This document shows, one piece after another, positions 1-64,000 of a stretch of 64,000 bases of DNA. Made by a program: the position numbers and the translations under genes. Source of the DNA: a virus (lineage: Duplodnaviria > Caudoviricetes); the IMG/VR virus record IMGVR_UViG_3300030420_000007, positions 358-64,357 of that record; one strand, 5' to 3'. Below the pieces are notes generated by a model. The model made no database searches. It was not told where the DNA came from and worked only from the letters and a program-made list of their open reading frames with translations. Position 1 is the first letter of the stretch; each line of letters starts with the position of its first letter.

Positions 1-698
1 GCTCGGATGATCAGAGGGTCAGGGAGCCCGGCTTCGCGGAACCCTTCGGCGCGGAGCAGGGTGGCATGATCATGGCCCACCGGTGGGTACTGCCCATCGT
101 AGGCCGTGTGGGTGAAGGCCAGCAAGGGGTAGGAGCCCTGCTGATACATCTCGACGATGGCCTGCGCCTTGGTCTTCCGGATCAGCGGGGTGTCGATGAT
201 CAGAGGCATCACGGTCACACCACGGCCCAGGGCTGCGTTAATAGCGGCCTGCTGGATCAGAATGAAGTCGAGGCGGCAGTCCGGGTAGTTGGCGTTGTCC
301 TGCTCACAGACGCCGGTGACCATGTGATCGGCCTCCAGGCACACGGCCCGGTTGGCAGCGATGGTCAGGAACAGGGCATTGCGCATGGGCACGAAGGTCT
401 TCTCGATCCGGGAGCCGATGACCTCGTCCATCTGCTTGTAGTCCTGGTACTGCTCCAGGACCACTTCCTTGTTGGTCAAGGGGCTGGTGCCTTGCAGGAT
501 GCCATCACCCAGGTTGATGATCTCGTGGTTGGTGACTCCCATCAGCTTGGCCACGGCCTTGGCGGCCTCGATCTCGCGCGCATGGCGCTGGCCGTAGTTG
601 AAGGTGATGGCGGCCACTTCATCGTAGAGTTTGACGGCCCAGGCAAGGCAGTAGGTTGAGTCCTGGCCGCCGGAGAGAATGACAAGTGCTTTATTCAT
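1..698 (-). CDS. queC: 7-cyano-7-deazaguanine synthase QueC (3' end runs off the window; absent from the ORF track)
   Basis: Manual translation from ATG at 698 (RBS AGGAG): MNKALVILSGGQDSTYCLAWA...ITFNYGQRH..EIEAA...TFVPMRNALFL...GVCEQDNANYPDCR..., i.e. the SGGxDS, YGQRH, VPxRN and YPDC motifs; frame open to the window edge. Confidence 0.93.
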   Translation of the reverse strand, partial: MNKALVILSGGQDSTYCLAWAVKLYDEVAAITFNYGQRHAREIEAAKAVAKLMGVTNHEIINLGDGILQGTSPLTNKEVVLEQYQDYKQMDEVIGSRIEKTFVPMRNALFLTIAANRAVCLEADHMVTGVCEQDNANYPDCRLDFILIQQAAINAALGRGVTVMPLIIDTPLIRKTKAQAIVEMYQQGSYPLLAFTHTAYDGQYPPVGHDHATLLRAEGFREAGLPDPLIIR

Positions 699-44762: not shown

Positions 44763-45791
44763 ATGGCTGGAACGAATGACTTTCTGGGATTTGGTGGCAC
44801 GGCCACCAATATCCTCACGCAGGTTGATTACGCCGCAGACGTGCAACGAAACACTGGCAATCAACCTGGGGTGGCAAGATCCCCACTGGTCAACAAGGCG
44901 CTGCGCCAGGCCTCCTTCATTGCCTCGGCGGTCGCATCCTTGATCGCCAAGGTGACCAACCAGAACGTGGTGGACGCCGGCACTGATTCCAGTGCCATTG
45001 CCTCGCAGCTTCTTTCTGCCACCATGATGTGTGGTTACGCGGTCCAAGCAGGCACGGCTACCGCTTACACGATGACGCTTGATCCGGCCCCTGCCGCCTA
45101 CCTGCCGGGGATGGGCATCAAGTTTTTTGTGGTGAATGCGAATACGGGGGCGGTCACCATTAACGTCAATGGTCTTGGCGTGGTGCCCCTGGTCAAGCCG
45201 AGTGGTGTTCTCACCTCGGGTGACTTGACCGTCGGGTTGCCGGTCGAGGCGATTTGGAATGGCACTTCCTTCATCATCACCTCCTTCCTGCCGGCCGCCG
45301 CTGGCTCAATGGCGGTTGGTACCATCTTCCATGTGCCAGCTAATTCGGCTCCGGCTGGATCCGTCAAAGTCAATGGCGCCCTGCTGTCACGGACCTCGTA
45401 CGCCGCTCTCTGGGCCTACGCACAGGCAAGTGGCAATATAGAAGTTTCCGACGCAACCTGGTCGTCGAACGCGACGGCGAACGGCACGAACGGCAAGTTC
45501 TCTCCCGGTGATGGCAGCACGACGTTTCGCATTCCTGATTTGCGGGGTGACTTCATCCGCGCGTTGGCGGATGGGTCATCGGTGGACTCTGGTCGGGGGA
45601 TCGGCAGCTTCCAAGCTGATGAGCTCAAGAGCCACACGCACACCTATAACCTGGCCGTGGGTGAGTCTGCGGACAGCAGCAATATCAACGGGACCAACGG
45701 CAGCAACGCGTACACAAACACGACTCTTGAGACCGGTGGGTCTGAGACTCGGCCGCGCAACACCGCTTACCTGACTTGCATTAAATTCTGA
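44763..45791 (+). CDS. Tail fibre protein with tail-collar domain
   Basis: GVARS..VNKALRQ N-terminus; VGTIF...APAG.VK.NG..LSR..YAAL, TTFRIPDLRG.FIR, ETRPRN.A. Confidence 0.88.
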   Translation: MAGTNDFLGFGGTATNILTQVDYAADVQRNTGNQPGVARSPLVNKALRQASFIASAVASLIAKVTNQNVVDAGTDSSAIASQLLSATMMCGYAVQAGTATAYTMTLDPAPAAYLPGMGIKFFVVNANTGAVTINVNGLGVVPLVKPSGVLTSGDLTVGLPVEAIWNGTSFIITSFLPAAAGSMAVGTIFHVPANSAPAGSVKVNGALLSRTSYAALWAYAQASGNIEVSDATWSSNATANGTNGKFSPGDGSTTFRIPDLRGDFIRALADGSSVDSGRGIGSFQADELKSHTHTYNLAVGESADSSNINGTNGSNAYTNTTLETGGSETRPRNTAYLTCIKF

Positions 45792-57879: not shown

Positions 57880-60477
57880 TTATGCGTAGGGGTTAGGGGT
57901 TCCGAAAAGCTCATGACTGCGCACCACGGCGATTTCCTCAAGCTCATGCCAGCGATGGCCGACCGAGACTTCAACGACCAGGGGCACGTTAATGTAGTCA
58001 AACCTGGGCAGGCACATTTCCTTACTGATGATCGCAATCCGGCTTTCAAGGTCTGCGTCATTAATACGGAAGGTCAGATCGTCATGGACGTTGATGATGG
58101 GGATTAGGCTCACGTCGTCTTCCGCCAGGCCACGCTCTGAAAGCACATTCATGCCCTCGAACACGATGTCAGCAGCGGTCCCCTGGATCGGCATGTTGAT
58201 GATCTCGTTCTTGGTCATGGGACCACGACGACGCCGACCACCCAGGGTCTCAACGTAGAGGTTCTTGCTGTAGTCCCTGAGCAGCTTCTCCTGCCACTTT
58301 TTGACCACCCGAAACTCATCCCAGAACTCAGCGCCCAGGTCCTCGGCGATCCGCTCGGGGAGATGAAGCTGCTCTGCGCAGCTTCTGGTACTAGAGCCGA
58401 AGAGCTGGGGGAAGACCCAGCCGTTCTTCGCCTCCTGGCGCAAGGTCTTCAGCCCCTTTTCGTCCCAGTCAACACCGAAGGTCTCGACGATGTAATCCTT
58501 GATGGGACCGTACTCCTGAACCATGCGCTCGGCCCAGTACTTGTGGACGTCATATCCGGTCCAGCAATACTTGACGAGGTTGGGGTCCTCACTCGCCATA
58601 CCCACCACACGGAACTCGATCTGACCGTAGTCACAGGCCACCAACCACTGCCCATCCGGGGCGTAGGCCATGCCCCTGACCTCCTTGTGTTTGCGCTTGG
58701 GCCAGTTCTGGATGTTGGGGTCCTCCGAAGCTCCGCGCCCGGTGACGGCCACCATGCTTGAGTACTTGCTCCTGACCTTACCATCCGGACAGATGATCTT
58801 GCCGTCAATGATGGGCTTGAGGTAAGTCCCCATGAGTTTGGAAAGAGCCCGGTGCTCTAGGACGAGTGGAGCGCTTGGGACTTCCTTGACGGGGATCTTG
58901 CTGAGTGCCTCCTCGTCAGACGTGAACCTAACCGCTCCGGAGCGGGAATCCTCGACCCTGACTTCATCACGCTGGCAGACGTCGCGCATCAGCTTAAGCA
59001 CTTGATCGGGGTTGGTGGGCTGGAAAGACCCAAAGCGTGATTCGTAGTCCTTGACCTCTGGGCACCGCTTGAGCTTGGCTTCGATGGACTGCGTCTCAGC
59101 CGTCATCCGCTTGAACATGTCGGTGGCATAACCCACGTCGATGTCAACCCCGCGGGCCTCGGTTAAGACCAGGGTGGGAGCCAGACGGACCTTACGCTCG
59201 TACTCGTGCTGGTAGGCGGGCTCTGCCATGACGATGGGCTTGATCCTGCGCCGAAGCAGGTCGGTCCACTTGGCGTCCATGCCGCAATACCGCAGCGTGT
59301 CCTTGATCGGGTACTCAACGATGCGCTTGACATCAACGTTGCTCTGATCCTTGAGGAAGAACCCGAAGTGAATCCGGGTCTGCATGTCGAGGGACTTGGT
59401 GCCTGATCTTTCGTCAAGCGTATGGCATAGCGCCATCGTGTCATCCCACTCCGTCTGGCGCAGCAGCTTCCCCCCGAAGAAGAACTCGAACCACTCCATC
59501 TCCATCGCCAGGTTGTGCGCGGTCTTCCTGCCGCTGTTAACCAGGTACTGGCCGAAGAGGTCCCAAACCTTCTTACGCCTGGCGGCGGTGCCCCAGCCCT
59601 CGGGATGATCCAGGGGGAAGGCAACGGTTCGCTCGAAGGTGCCTACGGCCACCATCCAGATGTGAGGATCCTTGAGGAAGTAGGGGCGCAGTCCATTGGT
59701 CTCAATGTCGACCGATGACTCAGGCTCTGACGCTAGGTCAATCAAGGCCTGCTCAACGCGCTGGAGATCACCGGGCTCCTGCCCCGTAATGATCTCGATG
59801 CCCTCGTCATAGGGACCCGCGTAGAACTTGGGATTCGGCAGACCAGAATCGAGAAGCGTCTTCAGCCGCTTGATGTCATGCTCGAAGGCCAGCTCGTACT
59901 CTGATTTCCCGTACTGCTGCTTCTTGTGCAGGTAGTTGGGATAGAGCAGTTGGTAGTAGTAGCAGACATGGTTGCCGATCTTGGTAACGAACAGCGTCCC
60001 CCGGTGCGGGATGGAACTGCCCTCCACGCCGGTAGCCCAGTGCAGAGGCGCATCACCAACGCCCACCACGATCAAGGGCTTGGTAGCCTCGATGTCTGAG
60101 ACCACCCGGCCCCGGCAGCACTCAACCTCAACCACGGTTTGATCCCCGTGGCATTGGGTCACATGCCCGGTCCTGACCTCGCGCTCAAGAAAGCCCGCCC
60201 CGAACTTGCTCCAGATGTGATCCCCAAGCTTTCCACTCAGGGGCTGTCTAGAGCGATCATCGTCTTCCGTGGGGGCTGGCATCAAAAGGTAGATTTGCGC
60301 GCTCCTAGAGCCTCCTGGTGCCATCTTGGGGCTGTTTAGCCCCTTGTCCTTGTCCCTGGGGCAGACTGAGCACCCTAGCTGCCGCAGGCTATTGATCGGG
60401 ATGTCAGCGCGGCGCCCCCTGCCCACAGCCTTGGGTGCGGGGGCGGCCTTCTTCGTAGCGTTGTAGAAGAACGACAT
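57880..60477 (-). CDS. Family A DNA polymerase with N-terminal UDG-like domain and 3'-5' exonuclease
   Basis: DIET, HN, DTM, Y.GMDA exonuclease motifs; TGR.AS.DPNIQN, ACDYGQIEFR (A), R..AK...F...FG (B), NVHDD (C). Confidence 0.93.
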   Translation of the reverse strand: MSFFYNATKKAAPAPKAVGRGRRADIPINSLRQLGCSVCPRDKDKGLNSPKMAPGGSRSAQIYLLMPAPTEDDDRSRQPLSGKLGDHIWSKFGAGFLEREVRTGHVTQCHGDQTVVEVECCRGRVVSDIEATKPLIVVGVGDAPLHWATGVEGSSIPHRGTLFVTKIGNHVCYYYQLLYPNYLHKKQQYGKSEYELAFEHDIKRLKTLLDSGLPNPKFYAGPYDEGIEIITGQEPGDLQRVEQALIDLASEPESSVDIETNGLRPYFLKDPHIWMVAVGTFERTVAFPLDHPEGWGTAARRKKVWDLFGQYLVNSGRKTAHNLAMEMEWFEFFFGGKLLRQTEWDDTMALCHTLDERSGTKSLDMQTRIHFGFFLKDQSNVDVKRIVEYPIKDTLRYCGMDAKWTDLLRRRIKPIVMAEPAYQHEYERKVRLAPTLVLTEARGVDIDVGYATDMFKRMTAETQSIEAKLKRCPEVKDYESRFGSFQPTNPDQVLKLMRDVCQRDEVRVEDSRSGAVRFTSDEEALSKIPVKEVPSAPLVLEHRALSKLMGTYLKPIIDGKIICPDGKVRSKYSSMVAVTGRGASEDPNIQNWPKRKHKEVRGMAYAPDGQWLVACDYGQIEFRVVGMASEDPNLVKYCWTGYDVHKYWAERMVQEYGPIKDYIVETFGVDWDEKGLKTLRQEAKNGWVFPQLFGSSTRSCAEQLHLPERIAEDLGAEFWDEFRVVKKWQEKLLRDYSKNLYVETLGGRRRRGPMTKNEIINMPIQGTAADIVFEGMNVLSERGLAEDDVSLIPIINVHDDLTFRINDADLESRIAIISKEMCLPRFDYINVPLVVEVSVGHRWHELEEIAVVRSHELFGTPNPYA

Positions 60478-60479
60478 TT

Positions 60480-61577
60480 TCAGTGCGTGCAGTAGGCCAC
60501 CAGGTGAACGAACTGGGCCTCGGCGTCAGCCAGGACCAGCACGGATTTTGAGAACCCCATAAGAGCGCAGGCTTTCGAGGCCCTGGCCACGAGCGCCGGG
60601 TCAACGTGGAAGGGGTCGGAGGGTTCGTCGGACATCTCTCCTTTGTAGGGCAGCGTGTCATCGGCGTCACCCATGCTGGAGGTTGAGGACATCTTGAAGT
60701 TGCCGTCCCCGATGGTGATCTTCGTGGCCTTGTCGACCTCACCCCCCAGGACTAGCAGGGCGCGCGAGAAAGCCGAGTCAAAGCTGTCCGGGATTTCGGA
60801 CAACTGGTCCTTGAGGTTGACCTGTTTGCAATGCTTGGCCATGATGCGGGGGAAGTCGAGGGGCTCCAGATCAACGGGAGTCTTGGACAGGAGCCTTGCG
60901 TTCGCGCCGAACTCAACCAGGAGGGCGCCGGGGAGCATCACCAAGGCAATCTCGTCGTCGGCAAAAGCCTTCGACAGCGTAACCAGCTGCTCACAGAAGA
61001 AGCGGGGGAGGATGACCGGGGAGTCACCCGGCAATTTGATCTTGCTCTTGGTCTGGTAACGGGAGATCGTGAAGTTGTCGGTCGAGAACAGGACGGCGTT
61101 GCCCTTGTCATCGACGTCGAGGGTCACCCCCATCTGCGCCGGGTGCGTGGGATCCGTACCCACGCTGATCAGACATGCGCTGATGCCCTTGAGGATCGAG
61201 TGGTCCAGGATGATCTCGTCGTCACTGTCCTCGGGCCAGGCAAGGGGGAAGTCCTTTGGCGCCTGGGTGGGCATCTTGATCTTGCTCCGGCCACTGCTCA
61301 GGACCAAGCCGGCGTCGCCGTCTTCCTGGAACATGATCTGGTCGGCGCTAAACGAGCTGAGCGCCCGAATCAGCATTTCCCCAGGCAGGCACTTCTCGAT
61401 CTCGACCCCAGCGCGCACGGAGATGGCCGAGATGTCGTTGTAGGCCGTGGCGAAGCCCTTGTCAAACTTGATCGTCTGAAGAGCCGGAATGTAGGACTGC
61501 GTTGACAAGGCCGGCCTCACGAGCCCGGTGATCTTGATCAATGCTTCGCGGTCGATGGTCTGTTTGTTGGCGCTCAT
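60480..61577 (-). CDS. Sliding clamp (DnaN/beta-clamp-like)
   Basis: 365 aa; ATAYND, DFP, GV, LFSTDN..ISR, SK...DFP; adjacent to polymerase and loader. Confidence 0.85.
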   Translation of the reverse strand: MSANKQTIDREALIKITGLVRPALSTQSYIPALQTIKFDKGFATAYNDISAISVRAGVEIEKCLPGEMLIRALSSFSADQIMFQEDGDAGLVLSSGRSKIKMPTQAPKDFPLAWPEDSDDEIILDHSILKGISACLISVGTDPTHPAQMGVTLDVDDKGNAVLFSTDNFTISRYQTKSKIKLPGDSPVILPRFFCEQLVTLSKAFADDEIALVMLPGALLVEFGANARLLSKTPVDLEPLDFPRIMAKHCKQVNLKDQLSEIPDSFDSAFSRALLVLGGEVDKATKITIGDGNFKMSSTSSMGDADDTLPYKGEMSDEPSDPFHVDPALVARASKACALMGFSKSVLVLADAEAQFVHLVAYCTH

Positions 61578-61731
61578 GGAGTTTCTCCTTGATGGTTTGG
61601 TTCAGTTGAGAGAGTGAGGTAAAGGCTTTTGGATGATCGTAGAAGCTGACCAGTCCCGAGGTCTCCCCAGCCTCTACGATGGGTTGTCCCATGTAGAGGG
61701 GAGCAGACCCAAGGACGGCGTAGACCTTCAC
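61462..61731 (-). CDS. Small protein B, resembles the N-terminal beta-alpha-beta unit of TGT/DpdA barrels
   Basis: MKVYAVLGS...IVEAGETSGLVSFYDH; GTGA-coupled to the NDT-like gene; 3' part overlaps the clamp gene. Confidence 0.6.
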   Translation of the reverse strand: MKVYAVLGSAPLYMGQPIVEAGETSGLVSFYDHPKAFTSLSQLNQTIKEKLHERQQTDHRPRSIDQDHRAREAGLVNAVLHSGSSDDQV

Positions 61732-62135
61732 GGCTTGACCCGTTCGATCAGCTGGTTGATGGCCTGGTCGATGCCGCTGACGATCTCAGAGGCGTGGAAC
61801 CAAAGCCACGGGCTGATTGGTGTATAGGGGTTGGGTCGGGCATCAATCACAATGATCGGCTTCTCGTGCTGGTGAGCGTAGACGATCTCCATGCTGGTCC
61901 CAATGCTGGGGCGGTCATGGTAGACCACCACGCCGTCACAGACCTGGATGTCCTTGAGATCACCTTGGACGATGGCATGAGCCAGGCTGGTCGTCATCTC
62001 GTCGACCGTCCGGTAATCATGCCTCATGGGGTCGAGGCAGGCCCCGGGCCACTTGCTGGCGAACTCCGCCCGCCAGTTACGGCACTCGGCGTCAGAGCAG
62101 CCCGCAATGGGGCCTGACAAGTAAATCAGCTTCAT
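61728..62135 (-). CDS. Nucleoside 2-deoxyribosyltransferase / dNMP N-glycosidase-like protein
   Basis: IYLSGPI, DL.DI..CDGVV, SIGTSMEI.YA...KP. Confidence 0.85.
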   Translation of the reverse strand: MKLIYLSGPIAGCSDAECRNWRAEFASKWPGACLDPMRHDYRTVDEMTTSLAHAIVQGDLKDIQVCDGVVVYHDRPSIGTSMEIVYAHQHEKPIIVIDARPNPYTPISPWLWFHASEIVSGIDQAINQLIERVKP

Positions 62136-62338
62136 GGTTTGTCCTTCTTGGTGGTGGTTGGTGATAGAGCCCGACGGGCCGGGCTCTTGCGTTGCTGGAA
62201 AATGGTTGAGCGGTTCTTGCCGTTGTACTCAGCGAAGGTCACCAAGAGCCGCGTGTGCCCTCCCTGCAGAAGACCGTGGGAGTACCCGGCGGTCCCCTCA
62301 AGCTCAGAGGATGACTGGACCAGATAGATCAGTGCCAT
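62132..62338 (-). CDS. Small protein A, resembles the N-terminal beta-alpha-beta unit of TGT/DpdA barrels
   Basis: MALIYLVQS...LLQGGHTRLLVTFAEY; starts 10 nt inside the dpdA 3' end after GGGGGA. Confidence 0.65.
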   Translation of the reverse strand: MALIYLVQSSSELEGTAGYSHGLLQGGHTRLLVTFAEYNGKNRSTIFQQRKSPARRALSPTTTKKDKP

Positions 62339-63159
62339 ACATTCCCCCGGCGTGCCGCCTGCTTGTCGAAGGGGTGGACGGCCTTGGCCTCGCTGACCTT
62401 CTTGAAGAACATCACATTGCACGTTGCCCGATGGTAGTAGCTATCGGCGACCTCAGCGAAGGTCTTGCCGCAGATAGCCAGCCACCGGTCCAGCACCTTG
62501 CGCATGTTGGGGCTCAAACTGTTAGCGTGCTTCCCGTCGTCGTTCTTCTTCGGGTTGCGGTGGCTCACGGAGATCGTCGCCGGAATCTGATCGAAGACGA
62601 ACTCCCCATCTTTGTCAACGGCCGGCAGATAGATGCCACCGCTGGCCGTGATCTTGATCCAGGTGGTCGAGTCAACGCTGTACCAGGGGTAGCGGAAGAT
62701 CAGGGGCACCGAAGTCATCCCGAACCCGTGAGTCTTGATGATGGGCATCCCAGCATCATCCGTGATCCTGGCAAAGAGCCTGTCAAGCCAAACCCTGCGG
62801 TTGGTCCCGGGGATACCCACCAGCCCACCAACGCCGATGTATGGGCATCCGTAGTCCAGCATACGCTCCAGGTACTTGAAGTCTTCCCCGTAGTGAAAGA
62901 CCGGCAGGGGGTCGAGCCCCTCGGCCTTCATGTAGAGGTAGTTCTTCCAGGTGGTTTCCGCAGCCTGCTCACGCTCGGTGCTGGTGGCGCTTCGGCCCGG
63001 AGCCCCAGGGATGGCATCCAAGCAAGCGTAGACCTCGATCAGCTCAATGTTCGCCTTGATGAAGGCGATGTACTCATCCAGGTCGATCTCCGTCCCTCGA
63101 CTCCAGGCCGAGAAGGCCCCCGAGTCGAGGAAGAAGATGAACTCGTCAGGCTTGATCAT
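62329..63159 (-). CDS. dpdA: DNA-guanine transglycosylase DpdA (TGT fold), N-terminally short
   Basis: FLDSGAFS, LDAIP, PVFH.GE, YIGVGG, THGFG, SVDSTTW; next to folE. Confidence 0.88.
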   Translation of the reverse strand: MIKPDEFIFFLDSGAFSAWSRGTEIDLDEYIAFIKANIELIEVYACLDAIPGAPGRSATSTEREQAAETTWKNYLYMKAEGLDPLPVFHYGEDFKYLERMLDYGCPYIGVGGLVGIPGTNRRVWLDRLFARITDDAGMPIIKTHGFGMTSVPLIFRYPWYSVDSTTWIKITASGGIYLPAVDKDGEFVFDQIPATISVSHRNPKKNDDGKHANSLSPNMRKVLDRWLAICGKTFAEVADSYYHRATCNVMFFKKVSEAKAVHPFDKQAARRGNVWH

Positions 63160-63162
63160 TTT

Positions 63163-64000
63163 TCACGCCTTGGCCAACGACAAGAACTCAGCGCGAGCGG
63201 CTGGCTTGTCTTTGATGGCACCGCGCAGGGCCGACGTGATGGTCGTGCTGCCCTGCTTGTTGACGCCACGCGAGCACATGCAGAAGTGCTTGGCCTCGAT
63301 CACCACGCCCACACCCAGCGGCTGCAGGGTCTCCTGGATGCAGTCGGCGATCTGGTTGGTGAGCCGCTCCTGCACTTGGAGGCGCTGGGCGAAGATGTCG
63401 GTCACCCGGGCCAGCTTGGACAGTCCGACAATCTTCTTGTCGGGGATGTAGGCCACGTGAGCGACTCCGAAGAACGGGGCCATGTGGTGTTCGCAGTGGC
63501 TGTAGAGTTCGATGTTGCGGACGACCACCATCTCGTCGGTGCCCTCTGCGCCATCCTCGAAGGTCTTGAGCACGGCCACGGGATCCTGGTGGTAGCCTTG
63601 GCACCAGTGCTTCCAGGCCTTGGACACACGCGCCGGGGTCTCTATCAATCCTTCCCGGTTCGGGTCCTCGCCGATCCACTGCAGGATGCGCCGGATGTTG
63701 TCTTCGACCCCTTCATCACCAATACCGGTCGCCGAGACCTCCCAGGGGAAGACCACCCAGCCCAGGGAATCGACCGCATGCGGAGTTTTGTCAACAAGCG
63801 CGAAGAAAGGTTTGTTGAAGCGGCTGCGCGTGGCGCCGGTGTCAATGATGTCGTCGATGATGACATCAGCCTCGTTGGGATCACTCACCAGCACGACCTG
63901 GTTTGAGACTGTCGTGACCAAGTAGGCGGCCGGGACGCCGCCACGAGGTACCGGATACGCCTTGACGTGGCCCTTGTGGTTTCTGGACTTGGCCCACATG
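63163..64000 (-). CDS. folE: Type I phosphoribosyltransferase - GTP cyclohydrolase I (FolE) fusion; 5' end probably beyond the window
   Basis: PRTase: [24 protein letters not shown]; then in frame [41 protein letters not shown]. Confidence 0.92.

Follow-up and report, generated by a model that had tools for sequence, protein, structure and literature searches.

A phage DpdA core without the first unit of its barrel, and two downstream small genes homologous to that unit

We analysed a stretch of 64,000 nucleotides (hereafter the window), positions 358 to 64,357 of the IMG/VR virus record IMGVR_UViG_3300030420_000007 (Duplodnaviria; Caudoviricetes), in which a short gene for DpdA, a member of the phage 7-deazaguanine insertase family, is accompanied downstream by two small open reading frames (ORFs), A and B. 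The source record is 64,357 bp long, has direct terminal repeats and is rated complete, and the window covers nearly all of it. The original prediction for this locus, made from the nucleotide sequence alone, held that DpdA is split into a barrel core and two alternative small proteins resembling its missing N-terminal strands (strand b1, helix a1 and strand b2, hereafter the unit). The three genes and their parts are arranged as follows (aa, amino acids; HMM, hidden Markov model).

62329-63159, minus strand: DpdA core, 276 aa (PHROG 887, E 1.1e-52)
62132-62338, minus strand: ORF A, 68 aa counted from its ATG, matched by the unit HMM
62204-62338, minus strand: unit part of ORF A, residues 1-45, with strand MALIYLV, a long loop and helix, and strand RLLVTFAEY
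62132-62203, minus strand: tail of ORF A, residues 46-68, basic and poorly conserved
61462-61731, minus strand: ORF B, 89 aa, with a GTG start, matched by the unit HMM
61567-61731, minus strand: conserved part of ORF B, residues 1-55, with strand KVYAVLGS, a short loop and helix, strand GLVSFYDH and helix PKAFTSLSQLNQTIKEKL
61462-61566, minus strand: tail of ORF B, about 35 codons, overlapping the sliding clamp gene in another frame

The DpdA core begins MIKPDEFIFFLDSG, and its start lies 8 residues before the FLDSG motif, as predicted. Since an in-frame stop is found 9 codons upstream of FLDSG and the stop of the preceding FolE gene (63163) abuts the core start, no longer DpdA reading is possible; all coordinates of the original prediction hold. 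Canonical phage DpdAs (PaMx25, the 9g/Seurat/JenP2 group, Dp-1 and ART) have about 52 residues before FLDSG, within the range of roughly 50-60 expected beforehand, and the DpdAs of the 9g, Seurat and JenP2 group align with that of PaMx25 from residue 1. This canonical segment reads strand-helix-strand (e.g. MNIFMAAV ... HILESYHY) and resembles b1 (FMPVGT) and b2 (NTYH) of the tRNA-guanine transglycosylases (TGTs). The core itself is 36-37% identical to the DpdAs of PaMx25, JG054 and the 9g group at 92% coverage (tblastn, E ~1e-41) and contains the motifs FLDSG (D12), ACLD (D48), IGVGGLV, THGFGM (H144) and VDSTTW (D163). Among 148 homologues D48, H89, H144 and D163 are invariant and D12-S13-G14 near-invariant. 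The order of the motifs FLDSG, CLD, IGGLV, HGFGM and VDSTTW is that of strands b3, b4, b6, b7 and b8 in TGT; from this order and from the range of the structural alignment described below, D12, D48 and D163 would correspond to D102, D156 and D280 of TGT, the catalytic aspartate after b3, the base-binding aspartate after b4 and the nucleophile after b8, respectively. The 276-aa sequence has four scattered cysteines, and a CxCxxC zinc motif is absent from it.

A phmmer search of the core against PDB sequences gave chance matches only (E above 0.4) and hmmsearch of PDB with a 148-sequence core profile found no relative, so the link between core and TGT rests on a fold model. The modelled protein is not that of the window but a relative with a fused unit (L005), 83% identical to the core, for which AlphaFold2 (AF2) gave a predicted local distance difference test score (pLDDT) of 92 using 150 diverse sequences. 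Model residues 45-306 align with residues 91-371 of Zymomonas mobilis TGT with a Z-score of about 15 (VIA-align), and the model aligns with residues 84-353 of the Pyrococcus horikoshii archaeal TGT (ArcTGT, 1IQ8) with Z 15.1, 222 aligned residues and a root-mean-square deviation of 2.9. Against the bacterial DpdA (bDpdA, 7UI4), model residues 22-305 align with Z 14.6 and 242 aligned residues, residue 22 being in the b2 region of the unit. The catalytic domain is predicted by this model to have a TGT-like fold. Since the model aligns with TGT only from TGT residue ~91 onwards, the core comprises barrel strands b3-b8 and the C-terminal subdomain and is devoid of b1-a1-b2. No family for the core, for A, for B or for the permuted form of DpdA described below was found in Pfam or NCBIfam at E up to 1.

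ORFs A and B share the pattern M-x-[IV]-[YWF]-[LAM]-[AVG]-G, followed by a loop and a helix and then L-x-[ST]-F, and their sequences can be aligned with one another as well as with small ORFs of related phages and the N-terminal units of fused relatives, which have the same core (60-83% identical). A unit profile built from relatives matched A with E 3.8e-14 and B with E 7.8e-13, the next best of the 1434 six-frame segments of the window having 0.24; as the only two matches in the window, A and B resemble the unit beyond chance. In hhalign comparisons the stand-alone units matched the cis-fused N-terminal units (Prob 96.9%, E 1.8e-10) as well as the C-terminal units of permuted DpdAs (Prob 91%, E 1.1e-6), with reversed-sequence controls at Prob <=1%. 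The HMM of the C-terminal units gave no direct match to A or B (E 0.25-2), and the link between them needs the profile-profile comparison. Both units are under purifying selection: among related contigs dN/dS, the ratio of nonsynonymous to synonymous substitution rates, was 0.13-0.16 for the A unit and 0.17-0.20 for the B unit, both taken at saturated dS (above 1), and 0.08 for the core. Furthermore, orthologues of A and B are present in more than 20 database entries from separate contigs of ~60-72 kb. Thus A and B are genuine coding genes, conserved and homologous to the missing unit of about 40 aa, and the predicted likeness of the two ORFs to this unit and to each other is confirmed by the unit HMM and hhalign. 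A resemblance of A and B to the N-terminus of the gene lying between them (MKLIYLSGP) was also considered and was rejected, the unit HMM giving no match there.

Residues 1-45 of ORF A are predicted to form one b1-a1-b2 cap, which we call A-type and which has orthologues in L003 and L005-L012 (L numbers denote related loci, P numbers related proteins). The tail of ORF A evolves almost neutrally, its nonsynonymous and synonymous diversity (pN and pS) being about equal (0.40-0.57 vs 0.62-0.75), and is probably disordered. The ATG of A overlaps the 3' end of the core gene by 10 nt in another frame, and a GGGGG run precedes it by 5 nt; the stop of A and the start of the following gene share the sequence ATGA. 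The longer A-type proteins of L007-L011, of 86-100 aa, have at their C-terminal end a conserved acidic motif (HMEELFDEG / HRELLREEDDE) that is absent from A of the window.

Residues 1-55 of ORF B are predicted to form a second cap, b1-a1-b2(-a2), here called B-type, with orthologues in L003-L006, L008 and further database proteins; the B unit is conserved down to ~47% identity. The GTG of B overlaps the stop of the preceding gene (GTGA), and the last 116 nt of B (61462-61577) overlap the clamp gene, which starts at 61577 with a strong AAGGAG upstream and whose product matches PHROG 947 and PF00712 from about residue 6-7 of protein and profiles. B is 61, 81, 88 or 89 aa long in relatives, and its tail is probably read-through into the clamp gene and dispensable for function. 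The predicted coordinates of ORF B are right, but its conservation is confined to the first ~55 residues. The overlap of B with the clamp gene is kept in L003 and L004 and absent in L005 and L006, and the AAGGAG ribosome-binding site of the clamp falls within the conserved KEKL codons of B.

A single unit is fused in frame to the N-terminus in 34 of the 120 closest homologues of the core (63-87% identical); several of these 34 have V, A or S at the position of the short-form start methionine and are therefore true fusions. Two tandem units are found in P0040 and P0065, three in P0013, and an A-like together with a W-type unit in P0109. Moreover, in the closest cultured relative, Edwardsiella phage vB_EpM_ZHS (hereafter ZHS), and in L005 an unannotated or uncalled in-frame unit lies upstream of DpdA. 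The one in ZHS (L001, OM621816) is MILWPGGSPDYMKALRATREREVLRWLAPFSD, directly upstream of the annotated DpdA at about 44848-44960 of the record; the annotated start of the 266-aa ZHS DpdA is probably too short, and the genes ZHS_62 and ZHS_63, which carry the annotation hypothetical, encode units. The window, L003, L006, L009 and L012 have no cis unit, and all five have downstream units, exactly one of them in L012. Clade loci with enough flanking DNA have 1-7 units each, which are minimum counts, since divergent copies escape the HMMs; all lie on the gene strand beside the core, and no genome among these loci is without units. The seven units of L004 are three fused before the core and four small downstream ORFs (L004:4001-6036, plus strand), and L029 has 3-5. 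Each of the tandem units of L004 starts with a methionine, which would permit internal initiation. An assembly artefact as the source of the short core was rejected, as the short start recurs in L003 (87% identity) and as five separate contigs have a core that lacks a cis unit.

The original prediction further held that the gene order at this locus is permuted, and this is strongly borne out by a survey of the family with 150 representatives, drawn from clusters at 50% identity. In about 100 of these the start lies within 20 residues of the DSG motif; in 70 of the 150 a C-terminal unit at residues ~280-335 was detected by an iterated HMM, and it was recognised by eye in about a dozen others (e.g. 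IKLIFAVG...RRLLSYYYL in P0127). An N-terminal extension of at least 38 residues is present in 26 of the 150, and 31 are at most 300 aa long without a cis unit. The clade's unit HMM missed the units in the distant loci L013-L017 and L020 and at first also the C-terminal units, which came to light when the tails of long "core-only" proteins were read through and were then confirmed by the iterated HMM; the latter also matches N-terminal units (P0236, P0195, P0125). Family members with the unit at the C-terminus are thus circularly permuted, and most uncultured relatives are single chains of this kind. The position of A and B downstream of the core is explained by this form, as core-then-unit is the order of the commonest single-chain DpdA. 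Many DpdAs do start at FLDS, which had been named as a possible objection to the split, but they have a C-terminal or downstream unit rather than no partner. Cultured phages, including 9g, Dp-1 and PaMx25, have one N-terminal unit, and the permuted form was not found in any cultured phage.

An independent split of DpdA at this same position is seen in two further lineages. In L022 a core of 269 aa precedes a unit ORF of 70 aa (E 1.4e-9), and in L044 a core of 281 aa precedes three unit ORFs (E 2.5e-3, 1.2e-10 and 2.2e-8). In addition, three small ORFs lie downstream of the core in the contig of P0131, and the start of a unit-like ORF, partial at the contig end, follows the core in L018. The three unit proteins of L044 (L044:2343-3346, plus strand) share a C-terminal tail motif (RL..YE..) like the tail that follows the unit in fused permutants, and thus the whole C-terminal part of a permutant seems to have been detached and multiplied there. 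A different route to several enzyme forms is seen in the uncultured phage-like contig L021 (L021:2831-6092, plus strand), with three full-length permuted DpdA paralogues in tandem (361, 363 and 363 aa), all of which have a C-terminal unit of their own. The DpdA family includes fused, permuted and split forms side by side.

The genes surrounding the core, A and B in the window are the following.

63163-63999, minus strand: FolE (GTP cyclohydrolase I) with an N-terminal extension (PF01227, E 2e-75)
61728-62135, minus strand: nucleoside 2-deoxyribosyltransferase-like (Ndt-like) gene, 135 aa (PF05014, E 3e-7, above cut-off)
60480-61577, minus strand: sliding clamp (PHROG 947, PF00712)
57880-60477, minus strand: DNA polymerase A
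3-698, minus strand: QueC (7-cyano-7-deazaguanine synthase; PF06508, E 1.6e-50)

FolE is the first enzyme of preQ0 synthesis, and QueC adjoins it once the direct terminal repeats of the record are joined, giving the order QueC-FolE-DpdA that is also seen in L003, L004, L005, L021 and L022. The N-terminal extension of FolE, whose ORF reaches the window end, has a phosphoribosyltransferase-like motif; in the distant syntenic locus L021 the place between QueC and FolE is taken by a stand-alone phosphoribosyltransferase gene (145 aa, PF00156), and thus the FolE fusion of the window joins genes that are neighbours elsewhere. The Ndt-like gene sits between A and B in the window, follows both units in ZHS and is absent from this position in L004; we regard it as context. 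The DpdA of ZHS is 69.5% identical to that of the window, and many uncultured contigs of 60-72 kb are closer than ZHS, with DpdAs up to 87% identical.

The core is homologous to that of the phage DpdA1 type (9g, the CAjan/Seurat group, PaMx25 and Dp-1), with the same FLDSG / LD / GG / HGFG / DS motifs and the same neighbourhood, in which FolE and QueC precede DpdA and the clamp and DNA polymerase A follow it; the adjoining preQ0 synthesis genes that mark this type are thus present in the window. DpdA1, however, is a single chain with one N-terminal b1-a1-b2, whereas in the window the unit is off the chain and encoded twice downstream. Homologues of 340-440 aa from uncultured phages (e.g. P0127, P0128, P0137), with cores 35-47% identical, have the same core-then-unit order; their unit is fused C-terminally, while that of the window is cut off as separate genes and duplicated. 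TGTs and bDpdA of the Salmonella Montevideo Dpd restriction-modification system likewise have the TGT-type TIM barrel, whose catalytic aspartates follow b3 and b8 (PMC10164549), and such a barrel is indicated for the window core (Z 14.6-15.1, L005 model). In contrast to the window core, which is without CxCxxC, each of these proteins forms a whole (b/a)8 barrel from a single chain and has large insertions and a CxCxxC...H zinc site; their similarity to the core is too low for HMM detection. A further requirement of bDpdA is the ATPase DpdB.

It is known that (b/a)8 barrels tolerate the moving or cutting of a (b/a) unit and that their fragments can reassemble, as in HisF half-barrels and permuted glycoside hydrolases. 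Such split or permuted barrels are mostly laboratory constructs or single permutations, whereas here fused, permuted and split forms occur naturally and the piece is multiplied. A functional analogy is offered by the HsdS variants of type I restriction-modification systems, in which one catalytic module is served by alternative small modules encoded nearby; there is no homology, and HsdS is a separate DNA-recognition subunit, while the exchangeable part here would be an integral piece of the barrel. Split, truncated or permuted DpdAs are not mentioned in Hutinet 2019, Cui 2023 or Gedara 2023, and a full-text literature search for DpdA with circular permutation found nothing relevant; within the literature searched, the arrangement has no prior description, as had been supposed.

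We consider it probable that this phage makes DpdA as a two-piece enzyme, in which A or B supplies the unit missing from the core. Such an enzyme would be a DNA guanine transglycosylase of the 9g/DpdA1 type, inserting preQ0-type 7-deazaguanines. Its 276-aa core would supply three catalytic or base-binding aspartates and strands b3-b8 of a TGT-type TIM barrel, and A and B, each translationally coupled to the preceding gene, would each supply one version of b1-a1-b2. The unit would dock between b8 and b3 and close the barrel, as in the single chains with the unit fused at either terminus. By sequence comparison, these separate genes are homologous to adjoining parts of single-chain relatives, as would be the case in a naturally split enzyme. 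With regard to the predicted split DpdA as a whole, the missing unit, the homology of A and B and the permuted order stand, and the physical complementation of the core by A or B we infer.

A and B differ most in the loops of the substrate face (b1/a1 and b2/a2), the b1/a1 loop having 16 residues in A and 11 in B, and two enzyme forms are therefore to be expected. According to the bDpdA crystal-structure paper, an insertion at b1/a1 helps to form the DNA-binding surface there. The caps A and B would give two forms that hold DNA differently, and the most plausible difference would be in which sequence contexts of G are modified; that core+A and core+B differ in DNA-sequence specificity is speculative. 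The repeated multiplication of the unit in separate lineages indicates that having several units is useful. As a tentative extension, which we think possible but would not bet on, several paralogous b1-a1-b2 mini-proteins could compete for one DpdA core, forming enzymes that differ in DNA-sequence preference or in resistance to host inhibitors.

Several observations weigh against a two-piece enzyme closed by A or B. Relatives with a cis-fused unit retain A- and B-type ORFs (L005, L008, L028-L030), so that the small proteins must be more than replacements for a lost piece; they may act on an already capped core by exchange, competition or regulation. In the L005 model the fused unit has pLDDT 74-82 and poor strand geometry, its strands being only isolated one-residue bridges; the first AF2 model, calculated with 34 close sequences before being remade with the 150 diverse ones, gave pLDDT 53-76 for the unit and strands of two residues. 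The TGT alignments omit the unit and b1 is covered by no alignment, so that the structural case for barrel closure, even in the fused form, is only moderate. Finally, B starts with GTG behind a weak ribosome-binding site.

The first and the second of these points would suit A and B being regulators of a six-strand core that is active alone or as a dimer, acting by competition with a cis cap, by timing or by blocking, or else acting as decoys on a host TGT-fold protein. We nevertheless regard this as rather unlikely, because the unit is nearly always present in cis, N- or C-terminally, across the 150 diverse representatives, because cores without a cis unit are followed by a unit ORF wherever DNA is available (L018 in part, L022, L044 and the clade of the window), and because the presence of units in every clade genome is the pattern expected of an indispensable part. 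It is also conceivable, though distinctly unlikely, that only one cap works, most probably A, the other being a drifting duplicate or having a new role: A directly follows the core and A-type units occur in every clade genome, while the ZHS-like branch lacks the B-type and has another second type, and B combines its weak start signals with running into the clamp gene. However, the purifying selection on B (dN/dS 0.17-0.20) is as strong as that on A, its conservation down to ~47% identity speaks against a drifting copy, and multi-unit arrays recur independently (L004 with 7, L029 with 3-5 and L044 with 3 units).

Two further explanations are far less probable. A -1 ribosomal frameshift near the core stop could join A to the core and so recreate a single-chain permutant, since A is read in the -1 frame of the core, which has no stop in the 28 codons before the ATG of A and overlaps the 3' end of the core gene, and fused permutants do exist among the relatives; yet no slippery heptamer of the form X XXY YYZ is present in the overlap, A has its own ATG preceded by GGGGG, and in ZHS, L009 and L011 the A-type gene is parted from the core by other genes, all of which makes a frameshift very improbable. 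Their shortness, the lack of a Pfam or NCBIfam family and the overlap of B with its neighbour might suggest that A and B are ORFs only by chance or are non-coding remnants left by a duplication, but this is scarcely credible given dN/dS values of 0.13-0.20 at dS above 1, the orthologues in more than 20 database entries and significant profile matches with clean negative controls.

The two-piece reading that we favour concerns a family that now presents three architectures, with an N-terminal unit, circularly permuted and split, of which the textbook N-terminal form is a minority in uncultured phages and the split arrangement recurs in many of them. For annotation this means that short, "truncated" DpdAs are not pseudogenes, that small neighbouring ORFs belong to the enzyme and that DpdA starts are mis-called, as in phage ZHS. 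A quarter-barrel fragment that has multiplied into alternatives and completes a TIM barrel in trans would be a rare natural case. The target motifs of DpdA differ between phages (such as CAjan and iggy), and the exchangeable piece, bearing two loops of the substrate face of the barrel, may offer a handle on how DpdA chooses them. If several caps indeed serve one core, the phage could protect more restriction sites and could adapt to hosts by gaining, losing or swapping cassettes of 40 codons, and the DpdA family would contain a split TIM barrel that is natural and evolvable, with one quarter of it serving as the specificity module.

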